From Gemmatimonadales bacterium (GTDB lineage Bacteria > Gemmatimonadota > Gemmatimonadetes > Gemmatimonadales > GWC2-71-9): DNA of 64,000 nucleotides. The stretch spans positions 160,001-224,000 of the forward strand of contig JBBCJC010000005.1 in NCBI GenBank assembly GCA_037189525.1. Direction: 5' to 3'. Below, piece after piece: positions 34,724 through 34,822 of this stretch (within the stretch, counting starts at the first letter, position 1; the number at the start of each line of letters is the position of its first letter). The position numbers and the translations under genes were made by a program. The notes below the pieces were generated by a model that saw only the letters and a list, made by a program, of their open reading frames with translations, was not told the DNA's origin and ran no database searches.

Positions 34724-34822
34724 ATGAACCGTACTCTCCTCTCCACGATCCTCTCGGCGCCGGCCATGTCGGCGGCGATGATGTGTTGTGGGCCCTGCCG
34801 GGGTCGGAGGATCGGTACGTAG
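34724..34822 (+). CDS. Met/Cys-rich leader peptide (32 aa) of the metY-metX operon
   Basis: MNRTLLSTILSAPAMSAAMMCCGPCRGRRIGT*, with ATG ATG TGT TGT at 34778-34789. Confidence 0.75.
   Translation: MNRTLLSTILSAPAMSAAMMCCGPCRGRRIGT

Follow-up and report, generated by a model that had tools for sequence, protein, structure and literature searches.

We examined the DNA upstream of metY in a 64,000-nt stretch of a Gemmatimonadales genome, which we call the window, and found a short Met/Cys-rich open reading frame (ORF) followed by an intrinsic terminator and an alternative pairing that excludes it. Together with the comparison of related loci, these features make it likely that the metY leader is a classical ribosome-coupled, leader-peptide transcription attenuator for sulfur amino acids. 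Going by codon conservation and pathway logic, we also lean, with less assurance, toward the reading that it responds to both Met and Cys. Ribosome-mediated attenuation had been suggested in a first-pass annotation of the sequence, and the idea gains support from conserved upstream ORFs (uORFs), from the absence of a riboswitch at this locus, and from a terminator with a co-varying antiterminator.

The leader ORF (34724–34822, + strand) has 32 sense codons followed by TAG and ends 90 nt before the metY ATG at 34913. Its codons 15–25 encode MSAAMMCCGPC, in which six of 11 residues are Met or Cys; the first-pass annotation had given these same particulars, and all were reproduced from the sequence. 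Its remark that TGT is disfavoured holds as well: crude gene calls over the whole genome contain 2494 TGT and 9675 TGC codons, which makes TGT the minor Cys codon (20%), and by the same calls Met and Cys together account for 2.3% of codons. In two same-genus orthologues, similarity begins exactly at the ATG at 34724, and the part upstream is unalignable. The control codons ATG ATG TGT TGT (Met19 Met20 Cys21 Cys22, 34778–34789) are invariant in all three aligned same-genus leaders, M15 and C25 are not kept in the two orthologues, and codons 19–22 appear from this alignment to be the conserved core. The one indel within the ORF among the same-genus leaders is a whole extra ATG codon.

A cluster of this kind could belong to a chance ORF, or to the end of an unrelated gene, that happens to lie beside an ordinary terminator. 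The leader ORF does form the tail of a 128-codon frame that is open from 34436, and short ORFs with at least four Met/Cys per 12 codons occur in 198 of 4679 upstream regions of this genome. A terminator follows the ORF in 8 of those 198, the metY leader included, and clusters of at least six Met/Cys per 12 codons are found in 6 of the 4679 regions. The Met/Cys cluster is by itself unusual, and its combination with a terminator is rare.

Since the first-pass annotation had proposed a search for conserved Met/Cys uORFs in related genomes, we gathered metY homologues from 60 relatives, 400 genomes of the phylum and 80 named records, and added upstream DNA for 80 further places, leaving out five low-identity places and one unpublished genome. 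After removal of duplicates, regions shorter than 300 nt and named records outside the two phyla, the final set held 144 regions, 132 from Gemmatimonadota (window included) and 12 from Acidobacteriota. Three high-scoring ORFs (L043, L053, L165) were excluded by hand as non-leaders, and two leaders that the terminator script had missed (L139, L068) were added by hand. Met/Cys leaders at similar spacing are present in 74 of the 93 close Gemmatimonadota regions, 49 of them with a SAM-II-class riboswitch upstream and 25 alone; 17 more regions have the riboswitch only, and two have neither. None of the 39 distant Gemmatimonadota homologues (50–61% identity) has a leader or riboswitch. A best-ORF score of at least 5 is reached on the sense strand in 66/93 close regions, on the reverse strand in 0/93, and in 0/39 distant homologues, and 11 of the 12 Acidobacteriota regions have a leader; because related genomes are not independent, these counts show spread rather than significance. 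The closest named metY records are from Gemmatimonadota. Upstream of metY in two Chloroflexota records (L084, L088), short ORFs contain a Met-Cys-Met cluster. The split between close and distant loci, together with the unalignable upstream part in the orthologues, makes a chance ORF or gene tail hardly credible.

Over 83 leaders, the core contains 220 ATG, 154 TGC and 122 TGT codons in varying order, and both Met and Cys are present in 82 of the 83 cores. TGT makes up 44% of core Cys codons, compared with 20% in the genes of this genome. This variation fits selection on the decoded residues, and not on a DNA motif or a peptide.

The first-pass annotation lacked both a terminator and an antiterminator arm. 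An intrinsic terminator (34862–34893, + strand; −18.1 kcal/mol), with a stem of eight G-C pairs, a 6-nt loop and the tail TTTTAATTTT, lies between the uORF and metY, as classical leader-peptide attenuators require, and its stem is kept, with changes, in the two same-genus orthologues. The antiterminator 5' arm, GGGGTCGG (34800–34807, + strand), is located inside the ORF, 13–22 nt past the ATG-ATG-TGT-TGT core, and is supported by predicted folds, shuffles and group covariation. The predicted antiterminator is a long hairpin that runs to 34867, topped by 34800–34807 and with an inner stem at 34826–34830/34843–34847. Its 3' arm, the shared strand CCGGCCCC (34860–34867, + strand), overlaps the terminator 5' arm according to predicted folds and covariation. 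The metY Shine-Dalgarno (SD) sequence GAGGA (34904–34908, + strand), conserved in orthologues, lies past the terminator, which does not sequester it.

In the proposed mechanism, a ribosome would translate the 32-codon leader behind RNA polymerase. When charged Met-tRNA(Met) and Cys-tRNA(Cys) are plentiful, it would run over GGGGUCGG (34800–34807) to the stop codon, the hairpin at 34862–34883 would form, and transcription would end in the U tract, 20–30 nt before metY. When either tRNA is short, the ribosome would pause at codons 19–22 with its footprint ending just short of 34800, the antiterminator would take the terminator 5' arm, and metY-metX would be transcribed. Folding of the window sequence with a footprint of 13 nt past the A-site gives a terminator probability of 0.00–0.22 for ribosomes stalled at codons 19–22 and of ~0.995 for ribosomes at codon 25, codon 29 or the stop. 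The geometry is tight, since a stall at C22 with a 15-nt footprint gives 0.98. Ribosome-free folds, which bear on a 1:2 protector or pause hairpin that would bring termination in the absence of translation, have a value above 0.5 in 80 of 83 loci; in the window it is ambiguous, 0.20 when the RNA starts at the ATG and 0.82 when it starts at 34683. The stall predictions are consistent with an antiterminator that excludes the terminator and becomes available when the ribosome halts at the control codons.

The same pairing could be traced through the family. The antiterminator duplex of the window is better than all 60 of its dinucleotide shuffles. In 66 of 83 leaders, the 3' part pairs more strongly with its own terminator arm than with those of non-similar loci, and in 65 of 83 it surpasses its shuffles. 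We tested covariation over 11 lineages (64 of the 83 loci) with row and column means removed. After this double-centring, the own-pair term is favoured in all 11 lineage groups, a result that 0 of 100000 permutations equal; for a control window placed upstream of the core, p=0.90. Before centring, own pairs rank first in just 6/11 rows and 3/11 columns of the raw matrix. At full-length equilibrium, the terminator probability falls below 0.5 in 8 of 83 loci when averaged over stall sites and in 19 of 83 at the best site. In partial transcripts, by contrast, folding predicts capture of the terminator 5' arm in 82/83 stalled states versus 7/83 at-stop states. Because the terminator still wins at equilibrium in most homologues, the switch would have to be kinetic, and classical attenuators likewise switch kinetically.

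We considered whether the ORF is untranslated, the terminator being controlled by a protein or RNA, or leaky and constitutive, and the ATG/TGT repeats being a nucleotide motif. Initiation is the weakest step of the attenuator reading. The first-pass annotation had cautioned that no SD sequence precedes the leader ATG, which is correct. A generic sigma-70 promoter scan of the window found none; a scan of 18 leaders, using a matrix built from 54 promoters of relatives, gave as the best, uncertain candidate a −35 TTGACA (34647–34652) and a weak −10 TTATTT (34672–34677) separated by a 19-nt spacer (34647–34677, + strand), with a score of 11.5 against a training median of 19.6. Its −10 ends 46 nt before the leader ATG, and the 5' UTR would be ~40 nt. 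Among the 83 leaders, an SD-like word precedes 22 (19/47 in tandem with a riboswitch, 3/36 riboswitch-less), and a canonical −10 lies 4–8 nt before the start of 9 of the 36 riboswitch-less leaders, which look leaderless; the window leader fits neither pattern cleanly, and leaderless geometry is absent from it. Repetitive U/G-rich tracts near the leader in several relatives also speak for an untranslated motif, as does the frequency of TGT in frame +1 (165 versus 130 in frame), although this excess arises because ATG is followed by T.

Codon-level conservation nevertheless favours translation of the putative leader. ATG is strongly frame-specific (247 in frame versus 10 and 21 in the other frames, 79 leaders), TGT and TGC vary synonymously, and the core changes by whole codons. 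Over entire ORFs, pairwise gap lengths are mostly not multiples of three in these noisy alignments (176/643, versus 107/719 past the stop), and stop positions shift among homologous leaders. In 64 loci, the median distance from the first base of the last core codon to the start of the helix is 16 nt, a spacing that agrees with a ribosome footprint. With the leaderless-looking relatives and the matching amino-acid leaders at other operons, these features render an untranslated ORF improbable.

A translated ORF might act through its product, a metabolite, thiol-redox or metal signal arresting the ribosome on the nascent peptide and flipping the same RNA switch. TnaC and CGS1 are precedents for nascent-peptide arrest, Cys and Met are typical metal or redox ligands, the dipeptides MC, CM and CR recur, and two leaders of this kind in the genome stand before a SusC/SusD locus instead of biosynthetic genes. 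However, the peptide outside the core is unconserved and the order and number of M and C vary freely within it. In many relatives, the core begins just 4–10 codons from the start, which leaves almost no nascent chain, and the minor codon TGT is enriched, which speaks for decoding. We therefore give little credence to a peptide sensor and prefer stalling on codons, as in a classical attenuator.

Which codons matter is a separate question. The same attenuator could have a single input, Cys or Met, with the other codons being passengers, spare starts or sequence kept for RNA pairing. Cys codons outnumber Met codons in Gemmatimonadota cores on average (~3.1–3.7 versus 2.3–2.7), some cores have one Met, and in 49 relatives SAM is already sensed upstream, which would make the Met codons partly redundant; in the available portion of the relevant report, Cys-only attenuators were tested in mycobacteria (10.1101/834739). 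On the other hand, nearly every core has both amino acids, some lineages are Met-dominated (4–5 Met, 1–2 Cys), predicted folds of the window expose the antiterminator for stalls at Met as well as Cys codons, and composition does not shift with the riboswitch: the Met fraction of the core is 0.42 versus 0.40 (p=0.74), so that a greater Cys bias in riboswitch-bearing leaders is unsupported. A single input is thus unlikely, though it keeps appreciable weight, and we retain dual Met/Cys control as the favoured reading.

The genes downstream provide a rationale for two inputs. metY (34913–36247, + strand) belongs to the O-acetylhomoserine (thiol)-lyase family (TIGR01326, 663 bits, cut-off 495), and metX (36244–37245, + strand), which overlaps the metY stop by 4 nt, is a metX-family homoserine O-acetyltransferase (TIGR01392, E 2e-78, 264 bits, below the cut-off of 500). 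Neither serine acetyltransferase (CysE) nor PAPS reductase was found in this 98%-complete genome, which does contain a CGL-like gene and a CBS-like gene of full length (482 bits against a cut-off of 510). Homocysteine made by MetX/MetY probably feeds Met (through MetH) and also Cys (by reverse transsulfuration through the CBS-like and CGL-like enzymes), a supply to both that would explain both control codons. Cys may still not depend on homocysteine, because a CysK above cut-off exists in the genome. On the other side of the leader, an amidase-signature gene (32812–34401, + strand) lies directly upstream. In the same-genus locus L002, a small gene homologous to window 32416–32792 lies immediately next to the leader region, which implies either gain of the amidase in the window or its loss in L002.

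We next turned to riboswitches, the exclusion of which by Rfam the first-pass annotation had advised. Rfam covariance models gave no match at gathering score over the whole window, and at E<=10 two irrelevant sub-threshold matches alone appeared over 34390–34930. A SAM riboswitch or T-box in the window leader was ruled out on the absence of an Rfam family match, and SAM-I was not found in this 98%-complete genome. Of the 93 close regions, 66 have a SAM-II-class riboswitch in this slot before metY, and comparison of the loci shows the leader exchanging with it. Since 91 of the 93 regions hold the leader, the riboswitch or both, the slot can be regarded as a Met/SAM-sensing one. In the plain form, the riboswitch matches Rfam SAM_alpha (43 bits in L008, 37 in L005 and 45 in L173, with a gathering score of 36; matches in L004 and L135 fall below it). 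Many family members carry a variant that keeps the conserved words and has a compensated P1, but with an additional hairpin ahead of the 3' strand, and Rfam did not report it in the loci scanned; its SAM-II-class label is based on the motif and P1 pairing judged by eye, plus the Rfam matches for the plain form. Upstream of metY in same-family genomes, for example in L009 (1150–1300), L013 and L137–L175, the SAM-II-like RNA has P1 GGCGG/CCGCC and an additional variable hairpin, and a terminator follows. From its sequence, this hairpin-insert RNA is possibly a new SAM-II/SAM-V variant.

Each riboswitch has a terminator-like hairpin of its own downstream, and in the tandem form the leader comes next. 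A quick, midpoint-drawn MetY tree of 64 full-length rows places the three leader-only loci of the window's clade as sister to a same-genus tandem locus (support 98) and groups 14 riboswitch-only rows weakly (81). This branching suggests that one gate was lost from a tandem ancestor, and suggests an order of gain and loss. Upstream of metY in L044, an apparently decayed SAM-II aptamer is seen, of which the 3' word and terminator are left before an intact Met/Cys leader. In L034–L036 and L059, pyrimidine-rich short tandem repeats lie between the riboswitch terminator and the leader start. Elsewhere in the genome of the window, SAM_alpha matches precede metH, an Hcy-methyltransferase/MTHFR fusion and a thrC-like/ThiF cluster, the last below the cut-off.

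Multivalent thrL- and ilv-type leaders read more than one amino acid and in this respect resemble the two-amino-acid metY leader. In the portion of the source available, E. coli trpL and Salmonella hisL share the short uORF with control codons, the antiterminator within and after the ORF, and the GC hairpin with U tract before the first gene (10.1101/834739). Unlike these classical attenuators, the metY leader would read sulfur amino acids, is without an SD sequence, and is riboswitch-stacked in most relatives. The SAM-II riboswitch (RF00521, SAM_alpha) shares its slot in relatives but binds SAM directly and does not sense tRNA charging.

The first-pass annotation knew of no characterised example. 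This stands for the mechanism; Met-codon leaders, however, had already been proposed before C. jejuni metY and S. lividans metNIQ, according to the sections of those papers at hand. In C. jejuni, MetL is a 20-codon ORF with three Met, counting the start, on a short RNA before cj1727c/metY, and a termination/antitermination leader was proposed; the RNA ends soon after the stop (Porcelli et al. 2013, PMC3847290, in part). The accessible text of a Ribo-seq study describes an initiation peak at MetL and a further Met-rich uORF before a methionine transporter (Froschauer et al. 2025, PMC11955535), and cj1727c is an O-acetylhomoserine thiol-lyase in the excerpt of PMC11187230, where metL goes unmentioned. 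MetL thus resembles the metY leader as a Met-codon leader directly before the same gene family, with one Cys beside its last Met, but differs in having a strong SD sequence and in being found only in three Campylobacter species; in the available parts of the two reports (PMC3847290, PMC11955535), Cys is undiscussed, no link to a riboswitch is made, and neither an antiterminator analysis nor a mutational test appears. We claim no homology. The S. lividans metL, a proposed methionine leader, likewise has a mixed Cys/Met cluster in a leaderless 29-codon ORF, but it precedes the metNIQ importer, and its authors, in the portion at hand, found no intrinsic terminator (PMC8079986).

In M. smegmatis, Cys-codon stalling in polycysteine leaderless sORFs was tested as a sensor and acts on translation initiation (10.1101/834739, in part), and uORFC-8-2 before cysS in Rhodobacterales is predicted to combine tandem Cys codons with a U-tailed terminator (PMC8632094, in part). 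Both differ from the metY leader in being Cys-only and in controlling cys genes, to judge from the same excerpts (10.1101/834739, PMC8632094). A terminator-free translational attenuator of the mycobacterial type, which hides the SD sequence, was ruled out for the window, where a terminator is present and the metY SD sequence lies downstream of it. In the consulted portion of a study of actinobacteria, Cys leaders were found and no conserved structure was seen before met operons (PMC1262725); a Xanthomonas met operon is reported to be under 5'UTR control (PMC6230763, in part). The literature searched (supplements in part, few subscription journals) contained no Gemmatimonadota leader, no mechanistic test of a Met attenuator, no mixed Met/Cys attenuator with an antiterminator, and no SAM riboswitch-leader tandem at met genes. 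Within that literature, the classical mechanism and proposed Met leaders are already known, and the dual core with a co-varying switch and the SAM-II tandem and interchange were not found in print.

Starting from its 222 terminators, we scanned the whole genome for leaders and recovered the metY leader along with a Trp-run, a Phe/Tyr and a Thr/Met/Lys leader, two more Met/Cys leaders and several rows that are likely chance. The Trp-run leader (contig C3, ~116374, − strand) and the Phe/Tyr leader (C3, ~576122, + strand) each have a terminator and, by eye, precede DAHP-synthase-like genes. An Ile/Leu/Val-rich ORF with a terminator (C5, ~592359, + strand) lies before a gene that looks, by eye, like pyruvate carboxylase. 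Before asd-aspartokinase, a leaderless-looking Thr/Met/Lys-rich leader with a terminator (C1, ~803954–804292; L220) is a candidate three-amino-acid attenuator. A SAM_alpha-like RNA that scores below cut-off lies back to back with it, before a thrC-like PLP enzyme and a ThiF-rhodanese gene, and this adjoining cluster is possibly a second homocysteine route.

Other Met/Cys leaders in this genome precede genes of other kinds. One, with a terminator, lies before a phenylalanine-hydroxylase homologue (PF00351; C5, ~484245–485150, − strand; L219/L253) in which the conserved PDIFHD motif reads PDIYAD. This leader is kept in a same-genus orthologue (L254), and no comparable leader was seen at 22 more distant, motif-intact homologues, apart from the doubtful L259 and L270. 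By its sequence, the homologue is a possible pseudo-enzyme under sulfur control. At another locus (C2, ~307670–314800, − strand; L218), a Met/Cys leader with a terminator precedes the gene for a 686-aa secreted Ig-like protein, and a second one, again with a terminator, lies between that gene and a SusC/SusD pair. The orthologous SusC in genome G057 has a Cys-rich leader with a terminator (L278), none was seen in L280, and L279 is without upstream DNA.

We offer a wider proposal tentatively, as one perhaps a shade likelier to fail than to hold. Gemmatimonadota may possess a sulfur 'ribulon' of dual Met/Cys-tRNA attenuators. In the metY tandem of most lineages, the terminator of a SAM-II-class riboswitch, often the extra-hairpin variant missed by Rfam, would be followed by the leader terminator, so that expression would require low SAM together with low charged Met/Cys-tRNA, and single-gate forms, such as the leader-only one of the window, would have arisen by gate loss. 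The same leader type would flag the SusC/SusD locus and the metal-ligand-lacking phenylalanine-hydroxylase homologue as sulfur-starvation genes.

Met synthesis is textbook ground for repressors, SAM riboswitches and T-boxes; a Met attenuator read by the ribosome has been put forward on the strength of transcript maps. This leader family contributes, from two phyla, a full terminator/antiterminator design whose arms co-vary. The one leader occurs naturally with a single gate or with two, which opens to testing the charging of elongator Met-tRNA as a signal, the integration of Met and Cys, and the replacement of riboswitch and attenuator by one another. In a poorly cultured phylum, such leaders would also mark unannotated genes as sulfur-responsive.
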